NCBI GenBank assembly: GCA_947373615.1
Contig: CANBYN010000001.1
Span: 1 to 43,276 of the forward strand
Reading direction: 5' to 3'
Source of the DNA: Burkholderiaceae bacterium
GTDB taxonomy: Bacteria > Pseudomonadota > Gammaproteobacteria > Burkholderiales > Burkholderiaceae
Length of the DNA stretch: 43,276 nt
Made by a program: the position numbers and the translations under genes. The notes under the pieces were generated by a model. The model was given only the letters and a program-made list of their open reading frames with translations, made no database searches and was not told the origin of the DNA. Positions 14,889-37,102 of the stretch are shown here, one piece after another (positions within the stretch are counted from its first letter, which is position 1; each line of letters begins with the position of its first letter).

Positions 14889-15080
14889 TTACTTCGCGGA
14901 ATGTAATTTATTCTGATCTGAAATACAAAAGTCCACGATCACATCAGCAAAACTTAAGTAACGAGAGTTACTTTTTCTAAACTGATCTATCTCGTTCACA
15001 ACTGGTGATACCCCACTCTTAAAACCAGCATCCTCATACCCAGGATGATAAGGGGCTTCTTCTACAAATTTGTTTGTCAT
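14889..15080 (-). CDS. Small hypothetical protein downstream of the glycine riboswitch
   Basis: 63 aa, TAAGGT SD before ATG, ends at a hairpin; no family recognised. Confidence 0.55.
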   Translation of the reverse strand: MTNKFVEEAPYHPGYEDAGFKSGVSPVVNEIDQFRKSNSRYLSFADVIVDFCISDQNKLHSAK

Positions 15081-15255
15081 ACATTAACCTTATTCAGTAA
15101 GCGCCCTAAAACAATAATGTTTAGAGCATAAAAGTAAAACGGATTTGCCATTACAAGCTACAAATGTCTACTGAACTATTCAAAAAGGATCTGCATACAA
15201 GATTCTCCCAAAGCAGCCCATCAAACACATGAACACCATGTGGATGGTTGCCGCT

Positions 15256-15442
15256 CCCCCTGTCCTTGATACCTGAGAGATTCACTCTAAGCTCAGCTTA
15301 GAACTTGCTCCTTCGGCGCACCATAAAGATGGTGACTCTCCAGACGGCCATTAAAGATAAGCAGTACCTTCCTATTGGTTACCTGAGCGTTCATGGGAGA
15401 TTGCGCCTTCGGTGGAGGGAAATCCCTCACTCTCCTGCTTGA
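15256..15442 (-). ncRNA. Tandem glycine riboswitch (two aptamers: about 15440-15359 and 15347-15256)
   Basis: Minus strand reads AAGCAGGAGAG..CCACCGAAGGCGCAA..CGCTCAGG..GGTACTGCTT then GTCTGGAGAG..CGCCGAAGGAGCAA..ATCTCTCAGG..AAGGACAG; both carry the GGAGA / CCGAAG / CTCAGG core; TATAAT at 15452-15447 places the transcript start at the first aptamer. Confidence 0.92.
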
Positions 15443-15754
15443 TGAAATTATATTCTGTGCACGGAAGAACAATATTAGTGATTACTACTACTCAAATCCT
15501 AAAAGACATTACTTAGATAGAGATGTCTTTGGTAAAGAGAATGGCCAAGCGCTGACTGCTTTGTTAATCTAACCAAGAAAAATGATGTATTAATTGCACC
15601 CATCGATCCGACTGGCTCGATCAAAGATGGGGTTTTGATAAGTCAACCAAAACACACTAGGGGCAGACAAGTTAGTCGTACCAAAACCAATTGCATACCC
15701 TAGAACCTCAGCATATAAGCCTAGGAAATCAAGCGTTAGAGCATTATGAAGTAG

Positions 15755-16149
15755 TCATACAAGCTCACTGATCTCGATCAAGTTCTGATCGGGGTCACGC
15801 ACATAAATAGAATTTAATTTTGAAGTAGCTCCAGTACGAATAACTGGGCCTTCAATAATAGGCCAATTTTCAGATGCCAATTTTGAAATCACCTCAATCA
15901 ATGGCACTGAAGCAATAAAACAAAGGTCTAACGATCCTGGCATAGGAATGTTTGCCTTGGGCTCAAACTCCTTGCTTTTATGTGTAGATTGATTTTTTGT
16001 TTGCCGAACTTTAATGCTTTACGCTCAACAGGTGGAGTGCCGCCAATAAATGACTCCAACTGCATACCTAAAACAAGAGTATTAAAATTAACGCATTCAA
16101 TCTCATTCGCGGTTGTAAGAACAAGATGGTCAATATTGTTCAGAAGCAT
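15755..16149 (-). pseudogene. VOC/glyoxalase family gene (GLOD5-like) split by a 1-nt frameshift near 15975
   Basis: IDHLVLT...RKALKFGKQKINLH in one frame continues as KEFEPKANIPMPGSLDLCF..EGPVIRTGA..SIYVRDPDQNLIEIS in another. Confidence 0.85.
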
Positions 16150-16193: not shown

Positions 16194-16346
16194 TTAGCGT
16201 CCCTGACAGTCAAGCGGCATATCCCTCAAAGGCTTCTCCTTGCTGTAATCACAATTAATCCCATCGGGTGAGGTAGTGCTAGCAAGGCATCCACCTAAGG
16301 ACAAAATGAACAAGGCTTCGATGAGAGCTGTAAATAATTTTTTCAT
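16194..16346 (-). CDS. Small putative lipoprotein (50 aa)
   Basis: MKK-hydrophobic-LGGC lipobox from ATG 16346; two more Cys. Confidence 0.55.
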   Translation of the reverse strand: MKKLFTALIEALFILSLGGCLASTTSPDGINCDYSKEKPLRDMPLDCQGR

Positions 16347-16393
16347 ATTCAGATCCAATTTAAATATATAAATGCATTCTCCAGAGACCAACA

Positions 16394-16475
16394 AAATCAA
16401 AACCTCTCAGAGGTAATTTCGATATTTCTTGAAGGCCTCAGGTCAAAATACACAAAGCCCATTATGTGATCCCAT
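16394..16475 (-). repeat. att-like repeat copy H (most decayed)
   Basis: Plus strand AAATCAAAACCTCTCAGAGGTAATTTCGATATTTCTTGAAGGCCTCAGG matches the consensus AAATGAAAACCACCCGAAGGTGGTTTTGGTGTTTCTTGGTGGCCCGGGG at 34/49 without gaps; hairpin ACCTC-TCA-GAGGT kept. Confidence 0.65.
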
Positions 16476-16575
16476 TGACTTCTAGTCAAGATAGACTAAA
16501 GGGTCCATCTTGATGCCTTGGGCTAAGCAAAGGGCTCGCCATTGCAGGACTGCTCCAAAATTGCCAAAAAAGAGT

Positions 16576-16633
16576 CAAGCCGCCCAAGGGGGTCCGAGAC
16601 GGAATCAATCAAGGCCGAGGATGACCAATCCTA
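16576..16633 (-). repeat. att-like repeat copy G (internal deletion in terminator arm)
   Basis: Minus strand TAGGATTGGTCATCCTCGGCCTTGA-TTGATTCCGTCTCGGACCCCCT-TGGGCGGCTTG; 16/22 to tRNA 3' end. Confidence 0.8.
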
Positions 16634-17155
16634 CTTAATAAGCCCGCATGCAATTCTTGGGCCCGAGTTCCCTGCTGGTTGTGATTTGTAATCATCAGGG
16701 TCGCGATGAACAACAACAGATCTTCCCAATATTCCAGTTGGCCCACTGTTAACAGCAAACCCGCTTAACTTTGCTGAATAAACTGCATTGCCATTGGAAT
16801 CCGATTTAATGTTTGGCATATCTCCAGCATGGTTTGCGCCGCTTCCAGGCATACCATGTGATTGAACATCCGGATTAAAATGTCCACCTGCGCTGGTTGC
16901 ATCTGGAGCCGAGCAATCTCCCTTTTCATGGATATGAAATCCTTGCTCGGCATTGGGCTTCAATCCTGAAAAGTTTCCGGATACCAATACATCATGCCCT
17001 TGCCATACAAAATTAACCGTACCTTTTACATTCGATCCCGAGCGTGCATCAAGGTTGGCAGATGCTTTTTGTCCTGCTCCATGCTCCATTGATTGGCATG
17101 CTGCCAAAGTCAGAGCCGCAAGAACACCCATAGTTAAACAAATGCCTTTAGCCAT
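16631..17155 (-). CDS. sodC: Cu/Zn superoxide dismutase, lipoprotein
   Basis: GFHIHE.GDC, SAGGHFNP, HAGDMPN, VVVH..PDD, GNSGPRIACG; LAAC lipobox. Confidence 0.93.
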   Translation of the reverse strand: MAKGICLTMGVLAALTLAACQSMEHGAGQKASANLDARSGSNVKGTVNFVWQGHDVLVSGNFSGLKPNAEQGFHIHEKGDCSAPDATSAGGHFNPDVQSHGMPGSGANHAGDMPNIKSDSNGNAVYSAKLSGFAVNSGPTGILGRSVVVHRDPDDYKSQPAGNSGPRIACGLIK

Positions 17156-17285
17156 CACTCATCTCCCTTATTTCTATTGATCTAGGATAGATCTTGCCTG
17201 ATTCTCACAAAAACACTCTTTAAGCAAAATAAAGACCTCGTTCCAAGTAGTCTTATTAGTTTATTTCATGGCTAAGTAATAAATA

Positions 17286-17365
17286 CCAAATTCGCCTTTG
17301 GGTAGTTTTGGTATTCTTAGCTGGTCAGGGATGGAATCAAATCACTATCGCATGGATGTTTCATC
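17286..17365 (-). repeat. att-like repeat copy F
   Basis: Minus strand ..AAACATCC..TTGATTCCATCCCTGACCAGCTA-AGAATACCAAAACTACCC; 16/22 to tRNA 3' end with one insertion. Confidence 0.7.
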
Positions 17366-17371
17366 TGGCCG

Positions 17372-17761
17372 TCAATGATGATATCTATATTCCTGAGTCT
17401 TTCCTCCATAACCATAGGAGGCCGCCCTAACATCTTGAACATGGATATAGCTTTCTTCATGCAAGTTGCCCAGAATTCTCTCAAAGCCCTCAAATGCCTC
17501 TTTGATGTATTGAGCCTTTTCATCCTTGGTATTGGTTTCATCAGTTACTTTGATGTCAAAGTAAAAACTGTTTTTACCTTGCTCACTCAATAAGCGACCG
17601 CCTACAAACCAAGAGTCATCATCTACATAGTTAATCGTAATAGCTATAACTTCCTTTTTCTTGCCCAAGATTCTGTGAGTAAGATCAAGAAGTAATTCAT
17701 TTATCTTTTTTGTAGTTTCTACTGACTTTTTACTGCTGACTTTGACATTTATGATTGGCAT
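17372..17761 (-). CDS. 4-oxalocrotonate tautomerase family protein (double-domain)
   Basis: Catalytic N-terminal Pro after Met removal (MPIINVKV); TNTKDEKA, SYGYGGKTQ. Confidence 0.85.
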   Translation of the reverse strand: MPIINVKVSSKKSVETTKKINELLLDLTHRILGKKKEVIAITINYVDDDSWFVGGRLLSEQGKNSFYFDIKVTDETNTKDEKAQYIKEAFEGFERILGNLHEESYIHVQDVRAASYGYGGKTQEYRYHH

Positions 17762-17774
17762 AACATTTTCCTAA

Positions 17775-17794
17775 TTAGTTAGCTATACAACTAT
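17775..17794. promoter_or_regulatory. Putative MarR operator upstream of tautomerase
   Basis: TTAGTTAGCTATACAACTAT, palindromic TAGTT-N8-AACTA; 19/20 identical to 18248-18267. Confidence 0.75.
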
Positions 17795-17814
17795 ATGATC
17801 TAAAAATAGGGGCA

Positions 17815-18228
17815 CTACAAGGCATCACTAATTCCCCTTAACCTTTGTACGACATCTAGAAACTCATTTGCTCCTAATAACTTTTTTAGCTTCTTGGTCA
17901 CTTCACCGCTTGCAGCGTTGAGCCCAGCCCTCATGGCCTTAGCCTTCTTGGTGGGATGAATTTCAACTTCACGAGCATCATGTGCTGATGGGAATCTTTC
18001 TATTAGCCCTAAATTCTCGAGCCCATCTAAACCTCGAGATACAGTCGGCTTAGTGATATTCATTTCTTTAGCCAGGACATTTGGATAAGACAGTGGCTTT
18101 TCCAAAACCACCCTTAGCATGAATGCTTGTGAAGGCGTCAACCCAAAAGGTTTAAACGCCAGCGTCCATTCCCGTTCTAACTTACGAGCTAGTGATGTGG
18201 TATTGAAATATAGGCATTGTTCAAACAT
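17815..18228 (-). CDS. MarR family transcriptional regulator
   Basis: FGLTPSQAFML, wHTH (LAKEM.ITKPTVSR.L..LE..GLIER), D.R wing motif. Confidence 0.9.
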   Translation of the reverse strand: MFEQCLYFNTTSLARKLEREWTLAFKPFGLTPSQAFMLRVVLEKPLSYPNVLAKEMNITKPTVSRGLDGLENLGLIERFPSAHDAREVEIHPTKKAKAMRAGLNAASGEVTKKLKKLLGANEFLDVVQRLRGISDAL

Positions 18229-18247
18229 GTAATAATTGTAACATCAT

Positions 18248-18267
18248 TTAGTTAGCTATGCAACTAT
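18248..18267. promoter_or_regulatory. Putative MarR operator upstream of marR (autoregulation)
   Basis: TTAGTTAGCTATGCAACTAT just upstream of a TACAAT -10 box. Confidence 0.75.
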
Positions 18268-18344
18268 TGTAGAGAATACAGTTATAAAAGTCATTATCTG
18301 ACTCTGCTATAGAAAATTAGTTTGTCCTTTTAAAGGATGTTTAA

Positions 18345-18366
18345 TAAAAAGAGGCTAAAGGCCTCT
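18345..18366 (-). terminator. Intrinsic terminator after GNAT gene
   Basis: Minus strand AGAGGC-CTTTA-GCCTCT-TTTTA overlapping the stop codon. Confidence 0.6.
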
Positions 18367-18811
18367 AATCCAGCAAAAGCCTATAAGGGGTCATCTTAGA
18401 CTTCACAAAGCCTTTCTTTTGATAAAAAGATTGGGCTTTTGTATTTTCAATATCCGTTAATAAGGTAATTCGATTACAGGACTCTTTTATTGCCTCGCTA
18501 ACCGCATAATCAATTAACTGGGAACCAATTCCTTTGCCTCTGAATTTTGATAGAACAACCATATCTTCAAGGATGGCTACTTTAGAGCCTAGGGCGGTAG
18601 ATTCCGTAAATAGTAGATTAATCATGCCTAATATTTTTTTATTATCTCTGGCAACTAAAACTATGCCGATCTTTGGATCAAGCATGATTTTGATAAGGGC
18701 TTTTCTTTGAGATTCTGAATGAGGCTCAAACTCTGCCTCTTGCTCAAAAAGAGTCTTCAATAACTCAACGAGTTCCGGAATATCTGAATAGATGGCCCTT
18801 GTAAATTTCAT
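18365..18811 (-). CDS. GNAT family N-acetyltransferase
   Basis: LEDMVV..FRGKGIGSQL, N.KAQSFYQKKGF. Confidence 0.88.
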   Translation of the reverse strand: MKFTRAIYSDIPELVELLKTLFEQEAEFEPHSESQRKALIKIMLDPKIGIVLVARDNKKILGMINLLFTESTALGSKVAILEDMVVLSKFRGKGIGSQLIDYAVSEAIKESCNRITLLTDIENTKAQSFYQKKGFVKSKMTPYRLLLD

Positions 18812-18864
18812 TGGTCAATTTTATTAATCTTGTCATCCCAATCAACGGAATACCGCATGCCATA

Positions 18865-18950
18865 CCAAATGAAACTATTCCAACTAGAGCGCTATTAAAT
18901 TTCTTAGTGGTCCGCGGTGAAATCAACTAGTGATGGGATGTGCAACCCTA
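18865..18950 (-). repeat. att-like repeat copy E
   Basis: Minus strand TAGGGTTGCACATCCCATCACTAG-TTGATTTCACCGCGGACCACTA-AGAAA...TTTCATTTGG; 16/22 to tRNA 3' end. Confidence 0.75.
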
Positions 18951-19394
18951 TTTCTTAGACTTATATTTTTGTATAGCCTCTTTTAAGTCTGAGTATTCCT
19001 CACAGCCAAAGTTGCAGGCCTTGTCTAATCTTGCCAATAATGCCTCAGCACCAGGCAGATCATTATTAATTAACTTTAGCTTCCCGTAATATTCAAGAGC
19101 GCCGCGATGATTTGGATCTATTTTTAAGGCAGCTTGATAGTACTTTTCTGCCCCTGCCAAATCAGGCGGCTGTTTCTTACGAAGACTGTAGCCCATCAAG
19201 TTATTCCAATCGGCTGAACTTGTATCATTGGCACCTTGTAACTGTTTGATGGCCTGATCATATTTTTCGGCTTTAATGCTTGCCCTTGACTCGGTTAACC
19301 AAGTTGGGTCTGACTTAACAGGCGCAGTATCTGCCCCATAAGATAAGCCAACCATTGAAAGGAGCAATAGAAGCACTGAGAGTGTTTTTTTCAT
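18948..19394 (-). CDS. Exported tetratricopeptide-repeat protein (start ATG 19394)
   Basis: MKK signal peptide; ADWNNLMGYSLRK, YYQAALKIDPNHRGALEYYG TPR pattern. Confidence 0.82.
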   Translation of the reverse strand: MKKTLSVLLLLLSMVGLSYGADTAPVKSDPTWLTESRASIKAEKYDQAIKQLQGANDTSSADWNNLMGYSLRKKQPPDLAGAEKYYQAALKIDPNHRGALEYYGKLKLINNDLPGAEALLARLDKACNFGCEEYSDLKEAIQKYKSKK

Positions 19395-19462
19395 TTTATA
19401 GCCTGTAGTTGATAGCCCCTCTTTTATAAACCGATTATTCAATTCCCGCTTGAGAGGAGGAT

Positions 19463-19545
19463 AAATAAAAATCACCCGTAGATGGTTTTGGTATTTCTTG
19501 GTGGTCTTGGACAGAATCGACCAGAGCCAAGGAGGCTTAACCCCA
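19463..19545 (-). repeat. att-like repeat copy D
   Basis: Minus strand TGGGGTTAAGCCTCCTTGGCTCTGG-TCGATTCTGTCCAAGACCACCA-AGAAATACCAAAACCATCTACGGGTGATTTTTATTT; 17/22 to tRNA 3' end. Confidence 0.88.
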
Positions 19546-19546
19546 T

Positions 19547-20503
19547 CTAATAAGTTAGCCCGGCAACATAAGCGTAAAGCGGAATTCCCAGGATGATATT
19601 AAAAGGGAAGGTAATTCCTAAAGACATCCCCATATATAAAGCGGGATTTACTTCAGGAAGAGCGTGCCTTAATACTGCTGGCACAGCAATGTAAGAAGCG
19701 CTGGCGGCAAGCACCATTAATAAAACGGTATCGCCTAGAGGTAAACCCAGCGACTTACAGAGTCCCAATGCGATAGAGGCATGAACTAAGGGGGCCCCAA
19801 TTGCATAAAATAAAGTAATGAGCGGTTTTCCTTTTAATCCCACAAAGTTCTTAGCCGCCATCAATCCCATATCGAGCAGGAAGAAAGCAAGCATCCCCTT
19901 AAATAGGTCGATTGAAAATGGGGCCATTATTTTTTGGCCAGCGTCACCACTCACCAAACCAACCATCATCGAACCCAATAAAAGAAGCTGCGCCCCATCG
20001 GTAAATGATTCGTGAAAAATCTTTGACATACCTACGGACTGTTTTGAATTGGAAGCTGACATCCTCGCTTTGTTTGCTAATAAGATTGCCAGAATAATTG
20101 CGGGCGATTCCATCAAGGCCATTGCGGCAGCCATATGTCCACCAAACGCAATGCCATATTGATCAAGTGCTTGCGTTGCGGTGATAAAAGTAACAGCACT
20201 CACTGAGCCATAAGTTGCGGCAATGGCGGCCGCATCATAGTTATTAAGCTTGGTTCTTAAAACAGCATAACCTATTATAGGAATGATGATTGCTAGAAAT
20301 ATTGCCAGTCCAAGTGCCAAACCAATCTCAAGAGTAAAGCCTGATTTATGAAGTGCAAAGCCGCCCTTCAAGCCCAAAGCCATCAAGAGATATAAGGATA
20401 AAAATCTAGCTATGGGCTGAGGAATTTCTAGATTGGATTTCACTGCACCAGCAAAGGCACCAAAGACAAAGAAGAGAATTGCTGGATCCAAGAGATTACT
20501 CAC
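19547..20503 (-). CDS. sbtA: Sodium-dependent bicarbonate transporter family permease (SbtA-like)
   Basis: LSLYLLMALGLKGG, YGSVSAVTF, MESPAI, ASASYIAVPA, LGITFPFNI. Confidence 0.85.
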   Translation of the reverse strand: MSNLLDPAILFFVFGAFAGAVKSNLEIPQPIARFLSLYLLMALGLKGGFALHKSGFTLEIGLALGLAIFLAIIIPIIGYAVLRTKLNNYDAAAIAATYGSVSAVTFITATQALDQYGIAFGGHMAAAMALMESPAIILAILLANKARMSASNSKQSVGMSKIFHESFTDGAQLLLLGSMMVGLVSGDAGQKIMAPFSIDLFKGMLAFFLLDMGLMAAKNFVGLKGKPLITLFYAIGAPLVHASIALGLCKSLGLPLGDTVLLMVLAASASYIAVPAVLRHALPEVNPALYMGMSLGITFPFNIILGIPLYAYVAGLTY

Positions 20504-20561
20504 GTTTATATCTTAGGTAATTTTAGAAGTCCTTGCATTAGCCCCACATAGTTTGAGGGCT

Positions 20562-20645
20562 AAATGAAAAACCACTCGAAAGTGGCTTTTGGTGTTGCTG
20601 GTGGCCTTAGGTGAAATCGATCGGGCCCGAGGATGCCTAATCCTA
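20562..20645 (-). repeat. att-like repeat copy C
   Basis: Minus strand TAGGATTAGGCATCCTCGGGCCCGA-TCGATTTCACCTAAGGCCACCA-GCAACACCAAAAGCCACTTTCGAGTGGTTTTTCATTT; 17/22 to tRNA 3' end. Confidence 0.92.
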
Positions 20646-21227
20646 CTTTAATACTGCTTTTACTTTCCTTCTAAGAGTCGGCAAAATCTCTTCTTCAAAC
20701 CAGGGATTCTTTTTCAGCCAAATATTATTTCTTGGGCTTGGATGCGGCAAAGGAATGGCCTTGGGCCAATAATTCTTCCATGCCATAACTGTTTCAGTCA
20801 AATTCTCATTATTGCCATCATCTAAATGCCACGCTTGAGCATATTGACCAATAATAATAGTTAGCCTAATGTTTGGCAGTTTTTCTAATAGCTTTACTCT
20901 CCAGGTATCGGCACATTCCGGCCTTGGGGGAAGATCACCCGATTTGCCTGTTCCCGGAAAACAAAAACCCATTGGAAGAAGAGCAATCCTCGTTTCGTCA
21001 TAAAAGACTTCTTTATCAATGCCCATCCATTCTCTTAATCGATCGCCACTAGGATCATTAAATGGAATTCCTGTTTCATGAACTCGGCTACCCGGCGCTT
21101 GGCCAGCTATGAGGATCTTTGCCGAACTACTCACCTGAATAATTGGTCGTGGGCCTAGTGGCAAATGATTGGCACATAAAGTACAGGAGCGAATTTCATT
21201 AACGAGCTTGGTGAGGGATAGGCTCAT
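20643..21227 (-). CDS. Uracil-DNA glycosylase superfamily protein
   Basis: CxxC, GQAPG, F.DPSGDRLR.W, MGFCFPG, DLPPRPEC, PHPSPRN. Confidence 0.88.
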   Translation of the reverse strand: MSLSLTKLVNEIRSCTLCANHLPLGPRPIIQVSSSAKILIAGQAPGSRVHETGIPFNDPSGDRLREWMGIDKEVFYDETRIALLPMGFCFPGTGKSGDLPPRPECADTWRVKLLEKLPNIRLTIIIGQYAQAWHLDDGNNENLTETVMAWKNYWPKAIPLPHPSPRNNIWLKKNPWFEEEILPTLRRKVKAVLK

Positions 21228-21241
21228 CAATTGAGAATACG

Positions 21242-22108
21242 CTATATTGCTTCGTCTGTCGTATCGTGAATCAAAGTCTGATCAATAAAGGCTTTCATCC
21301 CAAATTCATTGGTGCAAAATAGATCCACAAAGCGATGATTCCACCTAATATCCTCAAAGGTGTAGGTATGGTTAGAATGAATTGTTTGAGAAACGGTCTC
21401 ATCTAAACCCTTAACAGTTGCGACTAACGCGAAATCTGCTTTAGATAATTCTTCTTGAGATAACTTTGATAGAGGACTTTTTTCATCGATCGGATGAATC
21501 ACAAGCCAAGTCAATGCCAGCATGGGTGTATGGTTACGGGCCAAGCTTAAATCATATATCCGCCTTATGCTATTACCTTCTTTGGTGATCTCTTGTATGA
21601 ATAGGCTCAACTCAACTTCGGCGCCAATGATGCGGTTGTTTCTTTCATTAGCCATTCTGAACATCAAGGCAGGTTGGCCTTCGAAATTATTCACTATGGC
21701 AGTATTACTAAAGACTACTCTTGACCTTGGCAATGAAATTCTGGCAAATGCAAGAGCCGCAAACATTCCAATACCCAATAAGCCAACCATCGCTTCAATC
21801 GTGACCAAAATATGCCCATAGAGCGTTTGGGGATACATACTTCCATAACCAATAGTGGCTAGAGTTTGAACGCTAAAGAAAAAATACTCTAAAAACCCAA
21901 TGCTCTTAAGCCCTGCGATTGAATCATCCTGCAAGGAATACATGAACCCAAAAAGTAAATTAATGGCAAAAAACACAGCGACAAAAGAAGCCAAAAAACG
22001 AGGCCAGGACATTCGCACCACTAAATGATAAAAATCTATAAAGGCATTTGAAAACAGTGATGTTGAAGATCGCTTAACAGGCGTAGTCATGAAATTATTT
22101 TTATCCAT
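21242..22108 (-). CDS. Prokaryotic inward-rectifier K+ channel (KirBac-like)
   Basis: Slide helix DFYHLV, two TMs, FFFSVQTLATIGYG filter, cytoplasmic domain (LMFRMANER, W.VIHPIDEKSPL). Confidence 0.9.
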   Translation of the reverse strand: MDKNNFMTTPVKRSSTSLFSNAFIDFYHLVVRMSWPRFLASFVAVFFAINLLFGFMYSLQDDSIAGLKSIGFLEYFFFSVQTLATIGYGSMYPQTLYGHILVTIEAMVGLLGIGMFAALAFARISLPRSRVVFSNTAIVNNFEGQPALMFRMANERNNRIIGAEVELSLFIQEITKEGNSIRRIYDLSLARNHTPMLALTWLVIHPIDEKSPLSKLSQEELSKADFALVATVKGLDETVSQTIHSNHTYTFEDIRWNHRFVDLFCTNEFGMKAFIDQTLIHDTTDEAI

Positions 22109-22160
22109 TGAAATAGCTTAACCCATTGCTTCTATCAGCACATTCGAAACACTAAGGCAA

Positions 22161-22244
22161 AAATGAAAACCACCCGAAGGTGGTTTTGGTGTTTCTTGGT
22201 GGCCCCGTGCGGAATCGACAAGGGCTTCAGTATGCCTTACTCTA
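22161..22244 (-). repeat. att-like repeat copy B
   Basis: Minus strand TAGAGTAAGGCATACTGAAGCCCTTG-TCGATTCCGCACGGGGCCACCA-AGAAACACCAAAACCACCTTCGGGTGGTTTTCATTT; 20/22 to tRNA 3' end. Confidence 0.93.
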
Positions 22245-22796
22245 ATGGCTCTTTAAATAATCAATGACCCAAGCTGGGTCGCTATCGCTTGGAAAGATGG
22301 GATAGTGAACCGCCTCGATTACGCCATTATTAGCAATTAAGGTAACTCGCTTTAATAAAGTCATTCCAGCCGCTTCAAAGGTTGGCATATTCAATGCCTT
22401 TTGAAAGTGATGACCCTCATCACTGACAACTGGAAATGGCAGGTGGAGTCTATCAGCCATCTCTTTTTGATATTCAGTAGATTGAACACTTAAACCTACA
22501 ACCTCTGCACCCAATGCTTGAAGTTCTTGATAGTGATCCCTAAACGAACAACTCTGAGGCGTACATCCTCTTGCTCCAGGAATTTGATCCCAACCATCAG
22601 GAAGAGCAACATTGGGTTGCCCTGTCATTGGATAACAGTAGATAACCAACTTACCTTTGATGTCTCCAAAATTAACATTCTTACCATTGGTGGCATTTAA
22701 GGAAACATTGGGTAGTCTCATTCCCTTCAAATGATTGGTTGAACCATCATCTTGAGGAATGGGCAAGTCTGTAGGGAGCTGATTTAGATTTGTCAT
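22242..22796 (-). CDS. Peroxiredoxin (BCP/PrxQ-like)
   Basis: YP...PGARGCTPQSCSFRD, resolving Arg in LKRVTLI. Confidence 0.88.
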   Translation of the reverse strand: MTNLNQLPTDLPIPQDDGSTNHLKGMRLPNVSLNATNGKNVNFGDIKGKLVIYCYPMTGQPNVALPDGWDQIPGARGCTPQSCSFRDHYQELQALGAEVVGLSVQSTEYQKEMADRLHLPFPVVSDEGHHFQKALNMPTFEAAGMTLLKRVTLIANNGVIEAVHYPIFPSDSDPAWVIDYLKSH

Positions 22797-22811
22797 AGAT
22801 GAATTCTATAT

Positions 22812-22893
22812 AAAAACCGCCCATGTGTGGTTTTGGTGTTTCTTGGTGACCCGGGGCGGAATCGAACCAGGGCCGTGGATGCCTGATTTAATC
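22812..22893 (-). repeat. att-like repeat copy A (closest to tRNA)
   Basis: Minus strand AATCAGGCATCCACGGCCC-TGGTTCGATTCCGCCCCGGGTCACCA-AGAAACACCAAAACCAC; 22844-22869 is 25/26 identical to 23984-24009. Confidence 0.95.
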
Positions 22894-23511
22894 TTATTTA
22901 GGTCTATACAACTTAAAGAGTTGTTCCTTGCCAATGGTGAAGTAATCGCCTGGCCCACCACCTCTAAGGACATGTCCTGATTCTGAAGTTTCGTAGATTC
23001 CTTCTTTTAACAAGGCCTTATCAATATGAATATTTACAACCTCACCAAGCACTAACCATGTCTGAGCCTTTTCACCTGAAATACCTTTGAGCTGAATGAT
23101 CTCAGTGCATTTACATTCAAATGCGACCTTGGCGTTGGCAACTCTTGGAGGGGCAACTAATGTTGATTTAGCTTGCTCAAGCCCTGTAGCTTCAAACTCA
23201 CTGACTTCAGGAGGATATGGAGCACACGATTGGTTCATGGCTTCCACTAAATCGAATGTAACTAAGTTCCAAACAAACTCACCTGTCTCTTCAATGTTTC
23301 TTAAGGTATCTTTATAGCCAACACTTGAAAAGCCAATAATCGGAGGGACATAGTTAAAGGCATTAAAGAAACTATATGGCGCCAAGTTCATAACCCCAGC
23401 TTTACTTTGTGTTGAGATCCACCCAATCGGCCTTGGACCCACAATGGCATTAAAAGGGTCATGTGACAAACCATGCCCATTCTTAGGTTCATACGAATAC
23501 ATATCTGTCAT
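22894..23511 (-). CDS. Flavin reductase family protein (DIM6/NTAB)
   Basis: PRPIGWIST, NLAPYSFFN, KDTLRNIEETGEFV.N. Confidence 0.9.
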   Translation of the reverse strand: MTDMYSYEPKNGHGLSHDPFNAIVGPRPIGWISTQSKAGVMNLAPYSFFNAFNYVPPIIGFSSVGYKDTLRNIEETGEFVWNLVTFDLVEAMNQSCAPYPPEVSEFEATGLEQAKSTLVAPPRVANAKVAFECKCTEIIQLKGISGEKAQTWLVLGEVVNIHIDKALLKEGIYETSESGHVLRGGGPGDYFTIGKEQLFKLYRPK

Positions 23512-23534
23512 TTCTATTCCTTAGGCGGCTGGTC

Positions 23535-23900
23535 CTACTTAACTTCTTTTGGATTGAAGTAGGGGTTTTGAATAATTCCAAATCGATTTCCAAATGGGTC
23601 TTTTAATGCGGCGACCATAATGCCTTCACCAACATCAGTCACTGGTTCAAGCGATTCAGCGCCGAGATCCAATAATCTTTGAAAAGCCGTCTCTATATTT
23701 GCTACACCCCACAGTGGTTGTGATCCAGCTGTAGATGATTCGCCCTGTGGCAAAAGTCCAAGCTCAAAACCGCCTACCTGAAAGCCCACATAAAAGGCTT
23801 GATCATAATAGGGTTTCATCTCCAACACTTGTGAATACCAGTCTTTAGCTTTAGCCAAATCATTAACTGGATAGATTGCCGTTCTGAGTCCGAGGATCAT
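23535..23900 (-). CDS. VOC/glyoxalase family protein
   Basis: V.DLAKAKDWY..VL, DVGEGI.VA..KDPFGN.FGI. Confidence 0.88.
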   Translation of the reverse strand: MILGLRTAIYPVNDLAKAKDWYSQVLEMKPYYDQAFYVGFQVGGFELGLLPQGESSTAGSQPLWGVANIETAFQRLLDLGAESLEPVTDVGEGIMVAALKDPFGNRFGIIQNPYFNPKEVK

Positions 23901-23944
23901 ATAAGCCTAATTAGGGTTGCGTTGGTTAAGAATAGCAAACCCCC

Positions 23945-23974
23945 AAATGAAAAAACCACCCGAAGGTGGCTTTT
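23945..23974 (-). terminator. Intrinsic terminator downstream of tRNA-Phe (part of the repeated arm)
   Basis: Minus strand GCCACC-TTCG-GGTGGT-TTTTT, cUUCGg tetraloop. Confidence 0.9.
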
Positions 23975-23983
23975 GGTGTCACT

Positions 23984-24059
23984 TGGTGGCCCGGGGCGGA
24001 ATCGAACCACCGACACAAGGATTTTCAATCCTCTGCTCTACCGACTGAGCTACCAGGCC
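23984..24059 (-). tRNA. tRNA-Phe (GAA)
   Basis: GGCCTGGTAGCTCAGTCGGTAGAGCAGAGGATTGAAAATCCTTGTGTCGGTGGTTCGATTCCGCCCCGGGCCACCA, 76-nt cloverleaf, encoded CCA; TATAAT at 24075-24070. Confidence 0.98.
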
Positions 24060-24212: not shown

Positions 24213-26417
24213 TTAACTAATCTTAGTTTCTATTTTGGCTCGGGCCACATGTAATTTTCTGAAGCTGTCAATCATGCGGCGATGCCTGTCTAGCCCTTCT
24301 AGGTTTATGCTAGTTGGTGTCAGACCGTAGAATAGAACACTGCCGTCCACTGAGCCAATTGCTGCATCCATCCTCTCATTGCCAAAGATCCGACGCAAAT
24401 TAACTAAGTAGTCATCGAGCTCTAAAATTTCATCCAATAGAATTTCCAGTACCGCGTTTAAGGCCTGATAAAACAATCTGCGCTCAATTGTATTGTCGTT
24501 ATATTGCAGGAAGGCGCCCACCAATTCATGCGCTTCCGTAAAGCGTTTCAAGCTAAGATGAATCAGTAACTTCAACTCCAAAACTGTTAGTTGACCCCAA
24601 ACCGTATTTTCATCGAATTCAATTCCAATCAATGTGGCGATATCACCGTACTCATCGAGCTCATTACTCTCTAAACGCTCAAGAAGCATACTAAGGCCAG
24701 CATCATCTAAACGAGACAGGTTCAAAATATCAGAACGAAATAACAGCGCCTTGTTGGTGTTATCCCAAATTAGATCCTCTATTGGATAAATCTCAGAATA
24801 TCCTGGCACCAGTATCCGACAAGCGATCGCGCCCAGCTCGTCATACACTGCCACGTAAGCCTCTTTGCCTATAGATTTAATAATGCCAAACAAGGTTGCA
24901 GCCTCCTCGGCATTGGAGTTTTCACCATGGCTAGAGAAGTTCCATTCCACAAAATCATAGTCCGATTTAGCGCTGAAAAAATGCCACGAAACAATTCCAC
25001 TAGAATCAATAAAGTGTTCTACAAAATTATTTGGCTCAGTCACTGCCTCTCTTGAAAAAGTAGGTGGGGGTAGATCGTTAAGGCCTTCTAAACTACGCCC
25101 CTGCAGCAATTCCGTCAAACTACGCTCTAGTGCTACCTCCATACTTGGGTGTGCGCCGAATGAAGCAAACACGCCACCTGTCCGAGGATTTAATAAGGTG
25201 ACACACATTACTGGATAGACCCCACCCAATGAGGCATCTTTTACTAACACTGGAAAGCCCTGCTTTTCCAGTCCCTGAATGCCTGCCAAAATGCCAGGAA
25301 ATTTCGCCAGCACTTCCATCGGCACATCTGGCAAAGCAATTTCACCTTCCAGAATTTCGCGCTTAACAGCTCTTTCGAAAATCTCCGATAGGCATTGCAC
25401 CTGCGCTTCGGCAAGCGTGTTACCAGCACTCATGCCATTGCTAACGTAAAGATTTTCAATCAAGTTAGATGGGAAATAAATAGTCTCCCCATCTGATTGA
25501 CGAACAAAAGGCAACGAACAAATGCCGCGCTTTACGTTACCAGAATTGGTGTCAATCAGATGTGAGCTACGTAAATCGCCATCAGGATTAAAAATTTTCA
25601 GACAGCGCTCATCCAGAATTTCTGACGGTAAAGTATCGTTCTTGGCTGGCTTGAACCAGCGCTCGCTTGGGTGGTGTACAAACGCTGCGTTAGCGATATC
25701 TTCTCCCCAGTACGCACCGGCATAAAAATGGTTGTTACTCAGTCGCTCAATATATTCACCCAAAGCAGATGCCAATGCGCTTTCTTTTGTCGATCCCTTG
25801 CCATTGGTAAAACACATTGGAGAGTGGGCATCTCGGATATGCAAGGACCACACATTGGGAATGATATTGCGCCATGAGGCGATTTCAATCTTAATACCTA
25901 GATTCGCCAACACGCTAGTCATATTCACAATGGTTTGCTCTAGCGGGAGATCTTTGCCCACAATATATGTACTAGCATCAGATGCGGACTTTAAAGTCAA
26001 CAATGTTTGCGCATCAGCATCCAAGCTCTTAACTTCTTCAATGACAAACTCTGGCCCCGCTTGCACTACTTTCTTGACGGTACAGCGTTCGATGGAACGC
26101 AAAATGCCTTGGCGGTCATTTGCCGAGATATCTTCTGGCAATTCAACCTGAATCTTAAAAATCTGCTGATAACGGTTTTCAGGGTCGACAACATTATTCT
26201 GTGAAAGCCGAATATTTTCGGTGGAAATATTACGAGTGGCACAGTAAAGCTTCACAAAATAGGCGGCACATAAGGCTGAAGAAGCTAGAAAGTAATCGAA
26301 AGGACCTGGAGCAGAGCCATCACCTTTATATCGGATGGGCTGGTCGGCAATCACCGTGAAGTCATCGAACTTAGCTTCAAGACGTAACTTATCGAGAAAG
26401 TTAACTTTAATTTCCAT
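24213..26417 (-). CDS. OsmC domain / YcaO domain fusion protein (start ATG 26417)
   Basis: N-terminal OsmC-like (DQP...GDGSAPGPFDYFLAS..LC; RCTVKK); YcaO motifs NGKG....ALASALGE..ER and SNGMSAGN......Q.LSEIFER. Confidence 0.9.
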   Translation of the reverse strand: MEIKVNFLDKLRLEAKFDDFTVIADQPIRYKGDGSAPGPFDYFLASSALCAAYFVKLYCATRNISTENIRLSQNNVVDPENRYQQIFKIQVELPEDISANDRQGILRSIERCTVKKVVQAGPEFVIEEVKSLDADAQTLLTLKSASDASTYIVGKDLPLEQTIVNMTSVLANLGIKIEIASWRNIIPNVWSLHIRDAHSPMCFTNGKGSTKESALASALGEYIERLSNNHFYAGAYWGEDIANAAFVHHPSERWFKPAKNDTLPSEILDERCLKIFNPDGDLRSSHLIDTNSGNVKRGICSLPFVRQSDGETIYFPSNLIENLYVSNGMSAGNTLAEAQVQCLSEIFERAVKREILEGEIALPDVPMEVLAKFPGILAGIQGLEKQGFPVLVKDASLGGVYPVMCVTLLNPRTGGVFASFGAHPSMEVALERSLTELLQGRSLEGLNDLPPPTFSREAVTEPNNFVEHFIDSSGIVSWHFFSAKSDYDFVEWNFSSHGENSNAEEAATLFGIIKSIGKEAYVAVYDELGAIACRILVPGYSEIYPIEDLIWDNTNKALLFRSDILNLSRLDDAGLSMLLERLESNELDEYGDIATLIGIEFDENTVWGQLTVLELKLLIHLSLKRFTEAHELVGAFLQYNDNTIERRLFYQALNAVLEILLDEILELDDYLVNLRRIFGNERMDAAIGSVDGSVLFYGLTPTSINLEGLDRHRRMIDSFRKLHVARAKIETKIS

Positions 26418-26548
26418 TGAAATAATTCCGAAAATGATGTGGACGCTATTATCTGTCGCTACACCGTTGCCGCGCAATCTTGCGAGGATTTTTATAAACG
26501 CAAAAGATAATTTGCCGATTTTTTTCGACAAATTATTTACTTAAGGCC

Positions 26549-33809: not shown

Positions 33810-33845
33810 ATGAGAATTATCCAACAGAGCCAACAGTCTGTCCCG

Positions 33846-34211
33846 ATTGCTTCAATTTCCCAAACCCAATAGAGAGCAAGAATCCTTATCATTTCTGGGA
33901 TCGCAAGAGAGCTTGATGGCCCAGCGCATCCAGTCACTTTAGGTTTAGGCTCCGTTAATGATTACCGCATTTGGCACAAGGAAGGGTGTGATTTAGCTCT
34001 GAGATTACTTCAGCCTAGCCCGAGCTTTAGCTTAACAAGTACTTTTTATATCTAAGTATTCTCGAGGAACAAAACTAACACCATTCTTCCGCCTTCCGAA
34101 GGGTGGCTGACTTTTCTCATCTCCTGCCAAATGCCAGTTATTGATTCAACAAGGTGCAAGCTAGTGCGACAGCCAAGCGATGTCATTGGGAAACTCATTT
34201 TATTTGCTTAA
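33846..34211 (+). pseudogene. dprA: Eroded remnant of DNA-protecting protein DprA
   Basis: Manual translation gives collinear fragments IISGIARELDGPAH, ITAFGT..., LARALA*QVLFISKY..GT, CQLLIQQGA/LVRQPSDVI with stops, frameshifts and deletions; dprA normally lies between def and the topoisomerase gene. Confidence 0.8.
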
Positions 34212-34245
34212 AACCCCATTTAAAGGCATTTAAATGGGGTTTTAA
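34208..34245. repeat. Perfect 17-bp-arm inverted repeat (terminator or cruciform)
   Basis: TTAAAACCCCATTTAAA-GGCA-TTTAAATGGGGTTTTAA. Confidence 0.8.
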
Positions 34246-34429
34246 TATGAATACTGCCACTTTTAGGCCTGATTTATACATTCCAAAATAAGGCTTTTTG
34301 GACTTTTCCCAATTTATCGGTTAATAATAAAAAAGGGGTAAGTGATCGACCAAACCCTGATTTGGTTTAAATTGATCATCCTTTTCCCCTATTAAAAATA
34401 TCATTTCAGGCTCAAATTTAGGCAAACGC

Positions 34430-37102
34430 GTGGCAAAAGCACCCTCCAAAAGCACCTCAAAAACCTCATCCGTTGATCACCCCAAGGCACTCATCATTGC
34501 CGAGAAGCCGTCTGTTGCAAATGATATCGCCAAGGCTTTGGGTGGCTTTACCAAATACGAGGATTATTTTGAAAGCGACGACTTTGTTATTTCGTCCGCC
34601 GTTGGCCACCTTCTCGAAATTGCAGCGCCAGAGGAATATGACGTCAAACGCGGCAAATGGTCTTTTGCTAACCTGCCTGTTGTGCCGCCTTACTTTGATT
34701 TACGCCCCATTGTCAAAACTGAGTCGCGCTTAAAAGTTTTACAAAAACTGATTAAACGCAAAGATGTGACCTCACTCATTAATGCCTGTGATGCAGGACG
34801 AGAAGGTGAGTTAATTTTTCGGTTGATTGCACAACATGCAAAAGCTCCCCAATCTATTAAACGCTTATGGCTTCAGTCGATGACACCTGCAGCAATTCGT
34901 GATGGCTTTATTAACCTGCGCACTGACGAAGAAATGCAGCCCCTTTCAGATGCGGCGCGCTGTCGTTCTGAAGCAGACTGGTTAGTGGGGATCAATGGCA
35001 CTCGCGCAATGACTGCTTTCAATAGCAAGAGTGGCGGATTCTTTTTAACTACTGTTGGCCGTGTACAAACCCCGACTCTTTCCATAGTAGTGGAGCGTGA
35101 AGAGCTCATTCGCAAATTTGTATCCAAAGATTATTGGGAAGTAAGGGCCGAATTTATTGCTGCCGCAGGCCTTTATGAAGGTCGCTGGTTTGACCCCAAT
35201 TTTAAGAAAGATACTGCTGAGCCAGATGCGCGTGAGAATCGTCTCTGGAGTGAAGCTGCTGCTCTGAGTATTGTTGCGGCATGTCGAGGAAAGAAAGCTA
35301 CGGTTACCGAAGAGGCTAAACCAGCAACTCAGCTTGCGCCTCAACTATTTGATTTAACTAGTCTGCAACGCGAAGCCAATGCACGCTTTGGCTTTTCTGC
35401 AAAAAATACCCTAGGTCTTGCTCAAGCCCTCTATGAGCGCCATAAGGTCCTCACCTATCCTCGTACTGACGCTAAGGCCTTACCTGAGGACTACCTTGAT
35501 ACCGTTAAACAAACCATGGAAAACCTTGCTGATCATTCGCAAGACTATCGTACATTTGCCAAACAAATTTTGAATGGGGACCCAAAAGATTCAAAGACAA
35601 AGGCTGGTTATGGTTGGATTAAGCCTAATAAACGAATTTTTGATAACTCCAAAATTTCGGACCACTTTGCGATCATCCCCACTTTAGAAACACCAAAGAA
35701 TTTAAGTGAGCCAGAAGCCAAGCTCTATGATTTGGTTGTGCGACGATTCTTGGCAGTGTTTTATCCGGCAGCTGAATTCCGTGTAACTACCCGCATTACC
35801 GAAGCTTCTGGTCATCATTTCAAAACTGAGGGTCGCGTTCTTGTCAACCCTGGATGGCTGACCGTCTATGGTAGGTCCAATCAAGCTGACGATGAGTTGG
35901 TACCCGTGCAAGAAGGTGAAGCCGTTCAAACTGAATCTGTAGTTGCTGTGCCGTTAAAAACTAAACCACCTGCACGCTATACAGAAGCGACCCTACTTTC
36001 AGCAATGGAGAGTGCTGGCAAGTGGGTTGATGATGATGAAATGCGCGAAGCCATGGCTGAAAAAGGTTTAGGCACACCTGCGACACGCGCAGCAATTATT
36101 GAAGGCTTGCTTGCTGAGAAATATATGGTTCGCGAAGCACGTGAGTTGATTCCGACTGCCAAAGCCTTCCAACTTATGACTCTTTTGCGAGGATTAGACG
36201 TAGAAGAGTTAACTCGCCCCGATTTAACGGGCAACTGGGAAAATAAGTTATCGCTCATTGAGCAGGGCAAGATGAATCGCGACACCTTCATGCAAGAAAT
36301 TGCACAGATGACGCAGCGCATTGTTAAGCGCGCCAAAGAATATGACAGCGATACGATTCCTGGTGACTACGCAACAATGTCAACGCCATGCCCGCACTGT
36401 AAAGGCCCAGTAAAAGAAAACTACCGTCGCTTTGCGTGTGAAAAGTGCGGCTTTACGATTAGCAAAACTCCAGGTGGCCGCGCTTTTGAATATCCTGAAG
36501 TCGAAGAATTATTGCGTGAAAAAACAATCGGGCCTCTCCAAGGGTTCCGCAGCAAAATGGGTCGACCATTTGCCGCCATTATTAAGTTAAGCGAAATTCC
36601 CGAGGATGATGCTGATTATCCAAATGCAGGTTTCAAGCTTGAATTTGATTTTGGTAATACTCAAGATGATGAAACTGAAGCTATCGATTTCACAGGACGA
36701 CTAGCTCTAGGTGTTTGCCCAAAATGTTCTGGTGCAGTTTATGAAGATGGCATGCGCTACGTTTGTGAGCGCAATACTGGGCCAACTAAATCATGCGACT
36801 TCAAAACTGGCAAAGTGGTTTTACAGCAAGAAATTTCCCAAGAGCAAGTTCAAAAATTGTTGAAAGAAGGCAAGACTGATCTTCTCACCAACTTTAAATC
36901 TAACCGAACTGGTCGTGGCTTTAAAGCCTATCTTGCTTTGGGATCTGACGGAAAAATTGGCTTTGAGTTTGAAGCTAAAGCCCCCAAAGCTGCGGGTGCA
37001 GCCAAGGATCCTGCGAAGAAGCGGGCTGGCGCAAGTGCAGCTAGTAAGTCGGTCGCAAAGCCTAAGCGCGCAAGTAAAGCGAAATCATCCGAAAGTAGCT
37101 GA
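34430..37102 (+). CDS. topB: Type IA DNA topoisomerase (topoisomerase III family) with C-terminal Zn-ribbon/repeats and K/A-rich tail
   Basis: IAEKPSVA, DAGREGE, GRVQTPTL, TYPRTD catalytic Tyr, GLGTPATRA. Confidence 0.93.
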   Translation: MAKAPSKSTSKTSSVDHPKALIIAEKPSVANDIAKALGGFTKYEDYFESDDFVISSAVGHLLEIAAPEEYDVKRGKWSFANLPVVPPYFDLRPIVKTESRLKVLQKLIKRKDVTSLINACDAGREGELIFRLIAQHAKAPQSIKRLWLQSMTPAAIRDGFINLRTDEEMQPLSDAARCRSEADWLVGINGTRAMTAFNSKSGGFFLTTVGRVQTPTLSIVVEREELIRKFVSKDYWEVRAEFIAAAGLYEGRWFDPNFKKDTAEPDARENRLWSEAAALSIVAACRGKKATVTEEAKPATQLAPQLFDLTSLQREANARFGFSAKNTLGLAQALYERHKVLTYPRTDAKALPEDYLDTVKQTMENLADHSQDYRTFAKQILNGDPKDSKTKAGYGWIKPNKRIFDNSKISDHFAIIPTLETPKNLSEPEAKLYDLVVRRFLAVFYPAAEFRVTTRITEASGHHFKTEGRVLVNPGWLTVYGRSNQADDELVPVQEGEAVQTESVVAVPLKTKPPARYTEATLLSAMESAGKWVDDDEMREAMAEKGLGTPATRAAIIEGLLAEKYMVREARELIPTAKAFQLMTLLRGLDVEELTRPDLTGNWENKLSLIEQGKMNRDTFMQEIAQMTQRIVKRAKEYDSDTIPGDYATMSTPCPHCKGPVKENYRRFACEKCGFTISKTPGGRAFEYPEVEELLREKTIGPLQGFRSKMGRPFAAIIKLSEIPEDDADYPNAGFKLEFDFGNTQDDETEAIDFTGRLALGVCPKCSGAVYEDGMRYVCERNTGPTKSCDFKTGKVVLQQEISQEQVQKLLKEGKTDLLTNFKSNRTGRGFKAYLALGSDGKIGFEFEAKAPKAAGAAKDPAKKRAGASAASKSVAKPKRASKAKSSESS

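Follow-up and report, generated by a model that had tools for sequence, protein, structure and literature searches.

An integron-like array of gene-sized units behind tRNA-Phe in a Burkholderiaceae bacterium and its relatives

A stretch of 43,276 nucleotides from a Burkholderiaceae bacterium (the window) carries a real array of small gene units stacked behind a tRNA-Phe gene (Table 1). This array is an integron-like variant of the additive islands found at tRNA genes; it is not an integron, and the variant is new. Such arrays are genus-wide, in a genus that is likely Polynucleobacter: 34 of the 40 complete relatives scanned with an HMM, as an earlier note on this DNA had proposed, have 1 to 14 such sites behind tRNA-Phe, with differing cargo. 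The best-placed explanation, to which we give an even chance, is that this is a polar, recombinase-less cassette array whose units move singly, likely as circles, by means of a tyrosine recombinase that larger islands likely supply in trans.

Table 1. Parts of the tRNA-Phe array, in window coordinates, with the evidence for each
Feature	Position	Strand	Basis
tRNA-Phe(GAA), anchor and insertion target	23984..24059	-	ARAGORN, Rfam
Terminator 3' of tRNA	23945..23983	-	First part of unit 1, by inheritance pattern
Unit 1 cargo: VOC/glyoxalase (23535-23900), flavin reductase (22894-23511)	22894..23900	-	Pfam
Site A: arm, tRNA 3' core, terminator	22808..22892	-	HMM E 2e-21
Unit 2 cargo: peroxiredoxin	22242..22796	-	Pfam
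Site B	22159..22245	-	HMM E 7e-21
Unit 3 cargo: KirBac-type K+ channel (21242-22108), uracil-DNA glycosylase (UDG) family (20643-21230)	20643..22108	-	Pfam
Site C	20562..20646	-	HMM E 3e-15
Unit 4 cargo: SbtA-family bicarbonate transporter	19547..20503	-	Pfam
Site D	19463..19546	-	HMM E 1e-18
Unit 5 cargo: TPR protein	18948..19475	-	Pfam
Site E, decayed	18866..18951	-	HMM E 2e-6 for 18887-18951
Unit 6 cargo: GNAT (18365-18811), MarR (17815-18228), tautomerase (17372-17761)	17372..18811	-	Pfam
Orphan copy of island palindrome	18323..18339	.	Sole PWM match in window positions 1-27059
Site F, strongly decayed, marginal	17283..17370	-	HMM E 0.09; 19 bits
Unit 7 cargo: SodC	16631..17158	-	Pfam
Site G: arm and T-loop half, without CCA or terminator	16589..16635	-	HMM E 9e-7
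Site H: core end and terminator half only	16395..16438	-	HMM E 1e-3; complements G

Pfam returned the cargo that the earlier note had read from the letters alone, with all 11 array genes co-oriented with tRNA-Phe, and, as in the note, none of the 39 window ORFs scanned (of 78 listed) matched a recombinase, transposase or phage family. Of the eight copies of the site claimed there, A to E and G were recovered independently by an HMM trained solely on sites of other genomes, whereas F was recovered marginally and H amounts to half a site. The copies of this site of about 80 bp are anything but uniform, with a mean column identity of 64%. Since G and H each hold what the other lacks, they are more simply one interrupted junction than the borders of an empty unit of about 160 bp. 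From T-loop anchor to T-loop anchor, the units measure 1140, 647, 1598, 1100 and 594, then 1586 and 732 bp. Unit 6 is likely two fused units: the orphan palindrome, together with the occurrence of GNAT as a stand-alone unit of 578-583 bp in other loci, suggests that a further junction between GNAT and MarR has likely been eroded. Other parts also recur elsewhere, namely the peroxiredoxin unit in G125 (676-695 bp), the UDG gene as a stand-alone 683-bp unit in G067, the SbtA unit (1100-1101 bp, 84-86% identity) at rank 9 in G108, at rank 5 in G133 and in L234, the TPR gene in units of 597-598 bp in L123 and L211, and SodC in a 720-bp unit in G064. Among the 23 tRNAs found in the window's own genome, which is 73% complete, none beyond tRNA-Phe showed repeated 3' ends.

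Sequence comparison shows that a cassette consists of a terminator, one or more genes and an arm. The site consensus, built from 182 sites, is tRNA-derived, and even the arm, which had been called non-tRNA, is partly tRNA-like, with a 4-bp box, a 7-nt spacer and a TCCT box that line up with the anticodon stem-loop. In 23 junction triads, the arm columns follow the upstream unit (110:13) and the core columns are divided (9:10). The bases after CCAA track the downstream unit (31/52 vs 1/38). The arm is inherited with the upstream gene and often provides its stop codon, as for peroxiredoxin and SodC, whose TAG stops are the first bases of the arms of sites B and G. The terminator-like hairpin with which units begin is inherited with the downstream unit. 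The exchange point falls within the 22-26 bp core, from T-loop to CCA, and does not map to one base: in the very few informative cases, derived core bases belong to the upstream unit as far as about the acceptor strand and to the downstream unit thereafter, and in eight hybrid sites and one reciprocal hybrid the switch comes immediately to the right of the spacer instead. Stop codons lie 15-35 nt from the T-loop anchor in 78 of 119 units, 18 of them at one shared position. The arm resembles a protein-bound site, given its retention in 177 of 200 upstream families, its layout of two boxes 7 nt apart, the higher rate of change in the spacer than in the left box (16/196 vs 3/140 positions in 28 near-identical pairs), and the trimming of units that ends at its left edge. 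One mobile family has the core without the arm.

A scan for the site gave 289 matches (tRNA genes included) in 41 loci and none in reversed sequences, and of 150 relatives searched for tRNA-Phe itself, 142 have it at 99-100% identity. Median unit size is 948 bp, 85 of 141 units hold one gene, the last gene is co-oriented with the tRNA in 119 of 135, and the cargo includes toxin-antitoxin and stress genes. Content and order vary among relatives, as the earlier note had expected, and its standardised gene-sized units are borne out. Of 237 HSP ends that fall within arrays, 172 coincide with sites, against 9.6% expected. Its proposal that units are inserted one by one agrees with 28 of 29 site-to-site blocks between species-level genomes spanning exactly one unit (at least 94% identity; many loci only about 6 kb long, and pair counts not phylogenetically independent). 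Site score drops with distance from the tRNA in 24 of 26 arrays, which supports the view that the newest units sit at the tRNA and that sites decay outward. Trimmed units of 470-1330 bp are 98-100% identical yet have different neighbours on both sides, and they keep their length to a few bases at different ranks. The earlier note had named fixed gene order, breakpoints away from the repeats and descent of each unit from a deleted larger element as contrary to its proposal; what was found instead is variable order, breakpoints at the repeats and trimmed units that move singly.

The earlier note's idea of a helper element finds support in an integrase-bearing family of islands with shared end sequences. 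These islands, of 8-16 kb, lie in the same arrays and encode a 424-aa integrase, a 188-aa catalytic-domain-only recombinase, an AAA ATPase and DUF6641; they have a palindrome-bearing end arm in common with the cassettes. End arms with palindromes at +112/+158 occur in 65 of 219 downstream families against three controls, more commonly at rank 1 (14/29) than at rank 8 and beyond (3/31). Exact palindromes are concentrated inside arrays (40 of 44 genome-wide, in five genomes), and gene gaps that bear them are more often breakpoints than others (22/37 vs 34/136). It is likely, on this comparative evidence, that cassettes are stripped-down descendants of the larger islands, which likely also supply the cassette enzyme. 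An in-house tyrosine-recombinase HMM matched 6 of the 54 units that end in sites of the anticodon-loop type but not one of the 403 cassette-type units; as it was trained on the available recombinases, a remote family could escape it. The islands' recombinases are not assigned to cassettes, because island junctions point to crossover in the anticodon loop and cassettes exchange in the T-loop-to-CCA core.

Several candidate agents of movement were set aside. The window's own genome gave two PF00589 matches, read as XerD and XerC, and no resident integrase; G071, which is 100% complete and has a fresh site, likewise has only XerC and XerD by PF00589 and phrog_1. PF07508 had no match in five of five complete genomes, G071 among them, and the 424-aa integrase had none in 10 of 40 relatives, several of which have arrays. 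Action of XerC/D is not favoured, given that the site has no evident dif-like arms. A carrier phage or plasmid was rejected after three site patterns found no match in IMG/VR and blastn with site B found none in PLSDB and INPHARED. The island arm is not required for movement, since near-identical copies have moved in 15 of 172 families without it and in 7 of 81 with it (p=1). No terminal repeats were seen among 251 fetched loci, and the contigs of four runs, a form of data that drops rare forms, held no clean circle joints, only ambiguous ones (90% likeness).

In the explanation that we prefer, units would most likely be excised as circles and returned to the 3' end of the tRNA by a tyrosine recombinase, one likely provided in trans by the related family of larger islands. 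Exchange inside the T-loop-to-CCA core restores the tRNA, hands it the incoming terminator and displaces older units outward, where their sites decay. The 188-aa recombinase is a candidate cassette enzyme, the 424-aa integrase being tied to anticodon-loop junctions. The islands of 8-16 kb may collect cargo between palindromes, shed their core genes and then be trimmed until a stop codon meets the arm, which would yield a cassette. Carried further, and more tentatively, the system may be a two-tier analogue of the integron made from unrelated parts, in which the island captures genes between palindromes, sheds minimal cassettes with a tRNA-mimicking site and lends the catalytic-domain-only tyrosine recombinase that shuffles them at tRNA-Phe across the genus.

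Host homologous recombination is a serious rival, and a possible though less probable one. It holds that island-born cassettes spread by RecA/DprA recombination after DNA uptake, with no dedicated enzyme, in cells without mismatch repair; the invariant tRNA (76 bp) and 22-60 bp of core and terminator would be the anchors, and the arm would be kept by descent, gene conversion and extra pairing. ComEC and DprA were found in five of five relatives and MutS in none of the five, and mutS/mutL are reported missing in all 20 PnecC genomes, with an r/m of 7.4, in the cited part of PMC5644125; sites also occur, however, in the records of P. rarus and P. cosmopolitanus, which the same source gives as mutS-positive. 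The lack of a resident recombinase beyond XerC/XerD in G071, the mobility of units irrespective of the island arm, the spread of crossovers across the core and, at times, into the arm, and a rank-1 unit that G013 and G107 share (99.4%) starting at the tRNA and ending at the first site are all in keeping with such a route. Fragment transfer should nevertheless often bring two or more adjacent units, which is not the pattern of the inter-species blocks. The terminator often switches directly after CCAA (58 of 129 HSP ends fall at +20 to +29), which leaves at most 26 bp of identity, and pairing should be better with a perfect copy of the tRNA than with a divergent arm, yet there are 66 such copies against 547 arm-type sites.

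It is improbable that the units are mere scars of tandem integrase islands that decayed in place, mobile only in cis, by the CIME accretion established for streptococcal elements in the cited part of PMC5704250. This route fits the 102 of 403 cassette-type units that have island-type end arms, a share that falls with rank, and the existence of mini-units with both island ends but no integrase. Independent decay to identical endpoints is implausible, given the singly moved, near-identical trimmed units of constant length amid different neighbours; accretion is thus largely refuted as the whole explanation, and is likely true of cassette birth. Improbable too is an attC-like site of which one strand folds into a tRNA-like minihelix recognised by its shape. 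In its favour, pairing is possible between GGCCCTGG in the arm and the 3' strand of the acceptor, the upstream cassette owns most of the site, which supplies stop codons as attC does, and 60 sites give a weak folding signal, with a mean z of -0.9 (top strand) and -1.45 (bottom strand). Compensatory changes, however, are almost absent, common variants break the proposed pairs (40 A-C at one, 67 at another), and site A folds no better than shuffles. With covariation essentially absent and Rfam matching only the tRNA and two glycine aptamers, a single-strand hairpin or RNA structure is unlikely.

Integrons and CALINs are defined by attI, attC and IntI, with attC boxes RYYYAAC...GTTRRRY. The present arrays share with them a polar order of small, mostly one-gene, co-oriented and recombinase-less cassettes that move singly, a site at the cassette 3' end that often gives the stop codon, and toxin-antitoxin and stress cargo. 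The analogy drawn in the earlier note thus stands for the polar single-unit array, but not for the defining features: no integron integrase was found in the 39 window ORFs (Pfam), in the window's own genome or in G071 (XerC/XerD only by PF00589), neither attC box occurs in the site consensus, there is no attI, a single-strand hairpin is unsupported, and a tRNA serves as the target. With a terminator at the head of every unit, the units have no shared promoter and presumably carry their own.

Closer likenesses are found among tRNA-targeted elements. The additive flexible genomic islands of Alteromonas (PMC4898812) and fGI-2 of 'Ca. Methylopumilus', with its 20-bp tRNA-Lys repeats (PMC10872708), also have, in the cited parts, a fixed tRNA anchor, 3'-end repeats and strain-variable cassettes that cross species, here as near-identical copies. 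Those islands are described there as hotspots marked by the tRNA repeat, whereas the units studied here have a standard arm and terminator each, stop codons fused to the arm, a small median size, site halves whose ownership is mapped, and transfer one unit at a time. Islander islands (PMC4383910) and tycheposons (bioRxiv 10.1101/2020.12.28.424599), as the cited parts describe them, likewise restore the tRNA, displace its fragment and push old elements distally, and they cross over at the anticodon loop or at the T-loop/acceptor junction, subsites that correspond to the two junction classes of the present arrays. The 8-16 kb islands are in keeping with this kind of integrative island, but the cassette-type units, unlike its members, encode no detectable integrase of their own. 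The same part of PMC4383910 states that Islander rejects candidates below 2 kb or without an integrase and lists four tandems of at least three in 2168 genomes, whereas the present arrays reach at least 14 sites. CIMEs, in the cited part of PMC5704250, are integrase-less remnants that keep their att sites and stack at one target, which resembles the loss of the integrase and the retention of shared end arms and palindromes seen here; they move in cis with an adjacent ICE, whereas these units appear, from comparison, to move singly after trimming. A literature search found no paper describing the array, although Hoetzinger et al. 2017, on Polynucleobacter islands, may list the locus; 'tRNA' is absent from the main text of PMC5644125 and PMC7936036.

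The means by which additive islands acquire pieces the size of a gene without integrases is a question usually left open. In the present case the unit and its ends, the zone of exchange and a likely parent element have been mapped in strains that can be cultured, so that simple experiments could decide between an integrase acting in trans and host recombination. Such arrays may be widely overlooked, given that Islander's filters exclude them and that they lack integron signals. If a dedicated recombinase does act on the site of about 50 bp, it could provide a compact insertion tool. For the organisms themselves, these arrays offer a concrete route, open to testing, for the exchange of individual genes with stress, transport and toxin-antitoxin functions between species of a freshwater genus that is streamlined and abundant.

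The cassette array behind tRNA-Phe is real, and it is genus-wide in what is likely the host genus, Polynucleobacter. Of 113 genome loci with the exact arm-core pattern, the 80 listed bear the title Polynucleobacter or belong to lake MAGs whose labels are broader or doubtful. The Polynucleobacter-type site also occurs (L087, L147, L148) in two lake MAGs titled Bordetella parapertussis, probably automatic mislabels. The 37 kb behind tRNA-Phe were sampled in 40 single-contig genomes, drawn from the 142 relatives in which the tRNA had a match. There an iterated HMM found 289 matches (tRNA genes counted in) against 0 on the reversed sequence; at a 25-bit cut-off, 34 of the 40 had 1-14 sites beyond the tRNA and 6 had none. 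Gene content and order were unlike in almost every genome, the cargo comprising transporters, redox/stress enzymes, arsenic-resistance-like genes and toxin-antitoxin pairs. Recurrent units are equal in length within a few bases and stand at different ranks counted from the tRNA; the window's 1100-bp SbtA unit is also found in genomes G108 (rank 9) and G133 (rank 5). The addition of 251 further genome and metagenome loci brought the total to 464 non-redundant units.

In the window, tRNA-Phe is followed by degenerate repeats of the tRNA 3' end, each preceded by an arm and accompanied by a terminator-like hairpin. The earlier note counted eight such sites, from A, nearest the tRNA, to H. A model built solely on sites of other genomes recovered A-E and G clearly, F marginally, and of H no more than a half-site of core end and terminator. 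Since G and H are complementary halves, the "empty unit" claimed between them is more simply read as a single junction that has been interrupted. The cargo had been read correctly: all 11 genes agree and share the strand of the tRNA, and a scan of 39 window ORFs matched no recombinase or phage family, as had been stated. The arm's first three bases form the stop codon in four of the seven window units; in the remaining three the stop codon precedes the arm by a few bases.

Features in the window and at related loci
Feature	Location	Strand	Remark
tRNA-Phe(GAA)	window 23984-24059	minus	sole tRNA gene in the window
Upstream side of tRNA-Phe	window 24213-26531		also variable, like the 3 kb on that side of the gene in relatives
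Small lipoprotein-like ORF	window 16194-16400		distal zone, with the split VOC/glyoxalase-like gene
VOC/glyoxalase-like gene (by eye)	window 15755-16149	minus	broken into two overlapping ORFs
Tandem glycine riboswitch, RF00504	window 15250-15447	minus	upstream of the 63-aa ORF
63-aa ORF	window 14889-15080		no obvious glycine-cleavage or transporter gene there
Stretch between def and topoisomerase gene	window 33834-34430		no ORF of at least 70 aa
1.3-kb unit	G000 contig C102, 250-1632		lies apart from the tRNA, with a tRNA-Phe-type site on either side
Palindrome-bearing end arm	G133, L334:6985-7230		follows tRNA-Ser(TGA)

Inside arrays, 172 of 237 alignment ends (at least 94% identity) fell within a site, with 9.6% expected, and 28 of the 29 site-to-site blocks common to species-level genomes were exactly one unit; these pair counts take in related genomes and overstate independence. 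In 24 of the 26 arrays having at least four sites, site quality drops the farther a site lies from the tRNA. As content and order vary, breakpoints fall at the sites, units move singly and the sites show polarity, the outcomes that the earlier note named as refuting its proposal did not appear. Ectopic pairs of tRNA-Phe-type sites occur in G110 (L335) and around the C102 unit, which recurs in the arrays of L142, L242 and L246 at ~80% identity.

Two junction classes were distinguished: L sites, whose tRNA match runs from the anticodon loop onward, and S sites, the type found in the window. The S-site arm consists of a 4-bp box, a variable 7-nt spacer, TCCT and CGGCCCTGG, followed by a T-loop-to-CCA core. 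Its register matches that of the anticodon stem-loop, and it is therefore not simply "non-tRNA", as it had been called. The median length is 948 bp for S-closed units (n=403) versus 2360 bp for L-closed ones (n=54). The Islander table gives crossover subsites at the anticodon loop and the T-loop/acceptor junction, which fit the L and S classes (PMC4383910). Across 23 triads (95% flank identity), arm bases sided with the upstream unit by 110 to 13, core bases split evenly (9 upstream, 10 downstream), and bases past CCAA went with the downstream unit. A cassette thus comprises terminator, gene(s) and arm, with exchange somewhere within the 22-26 bp core. Exceptions are eight hybrid sites and one reciprocal hybrid, switching just right of the spacer. 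The arm is retained in 177 of 200 upstream families; in 28 near-identical pairs, differing positions made up 8.2% in the spacer versus 2.1% in the left box, on small numbers. Folding and covariation lend little support to an attC-like hairpin.

Some L-closed units are islands of 8-16 kb. They encode a tyrosine integrase of 424 aa, which matches phrog_1 (E 7e-31) and no Pfam family at 1e-5, and a 188-aa recombinase consisting of the catalytic domain only; an AAA ATPase and DUF6641 are encoded as well. An HMM built from these island recombinases and XerC/D matched in 6 L-closed units and in 0 of 403 S-closed ones. Islands and many cassettes also have in common the stretch that follows the terminator. 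This end arm carries a 15-bp palindrome at +112 and +158, and was seen in 65 of 219 families as against 3 controls. Genome-wide, 40 of 44 exact palindromes in five genomes lay inside the array; the other four follow tRNA-Ser (two) or flank an ectopic tRNA-Phe-type site pair (two). Within islands the palindrome lies between gene modules, and breakpoints occurred at 22 of 37 palindrome-holding gaps versus 34 of 136 without. The end arm was found in 14 of 29 units at rank 1, but in only 3 of 31 from rank 8 onward; window units lack it, one orphan palindrome remaining between GNAT and MarR. From these sequence comparisons we infer that cassettes are offspring of such islands, born from them and then trimmed with age. 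Between its palindromes the end arm holds a cassette-arm-like segment, whose variants end in TAGACATCC, then GTCGAT, which hints at an origin of the cassette arm in an island repeat that became joined to the T-loop. Given the end arm at tRNA-Ser(TGA), and palindromes and related integrases adjoining tRNA-Met in G125 (L336), the island family uses several tRNAs. Upstream of tRNA-Phe, an OsmC-YcaO gene is present in some genomes only, and three (G023, G061, G120) carry there an integrase of the island-integrase family, directed away from the tRNA.

That a tyrosine recombinase moves the cassettes in trans has, in our judgement, an even chance: units transfer singly, the box-spacer-box arm is conserved with trimming up to its edge, many junctions share 26 bp of identity or less, and intact islands occur in 5 of 40 arrays. 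Against this reading, island junctions indicate the anticodon loop, families moved equally often without the island arm (15 of 172) and with it (7 of 81), G071 has a fresh site yet matched the recombinase families searched with XerC/XerD only, and searches for a carrier phage, carrier plasmid or excised circle found none. Spread by host homologous recombination is a real rival, which we hold to be the less likely of the two. ComEC and DprA were present in 5/5 genomes and MutS in 0/5, and PMC5644125 reports mutS/mutL loss and high recombination in PnecC. DprA had no match in the window's own genome (73% complete); dprA occurs in 5/5 relatives, in four of them ~7.5-10.6 kb from tRNA-Phe, and the stretch between def and the topoisomerase gene is possibly a decayed dprA.

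In relatives, the zone distal to the array contains genes known elsewhere as stand-alone cassettes (MAPEG, peroxiredoxin); this zone suggests that old cassettes become fixed there. A literature search covering main texts found no account of this array. Although the layout is like that of an integron, the array is not one by the tests that define integrons. It is to be grouped with the additive tRNA islands (PMC4898812, PMC10872708), and there are resemblances to CIME accretion (PMC5704250) as well as to the tandems of tycheposons (bioRxiv 10.1101/2020.12.28.424599). Within the literature searched, the array is a previously undescribed form of additive tRNA island.
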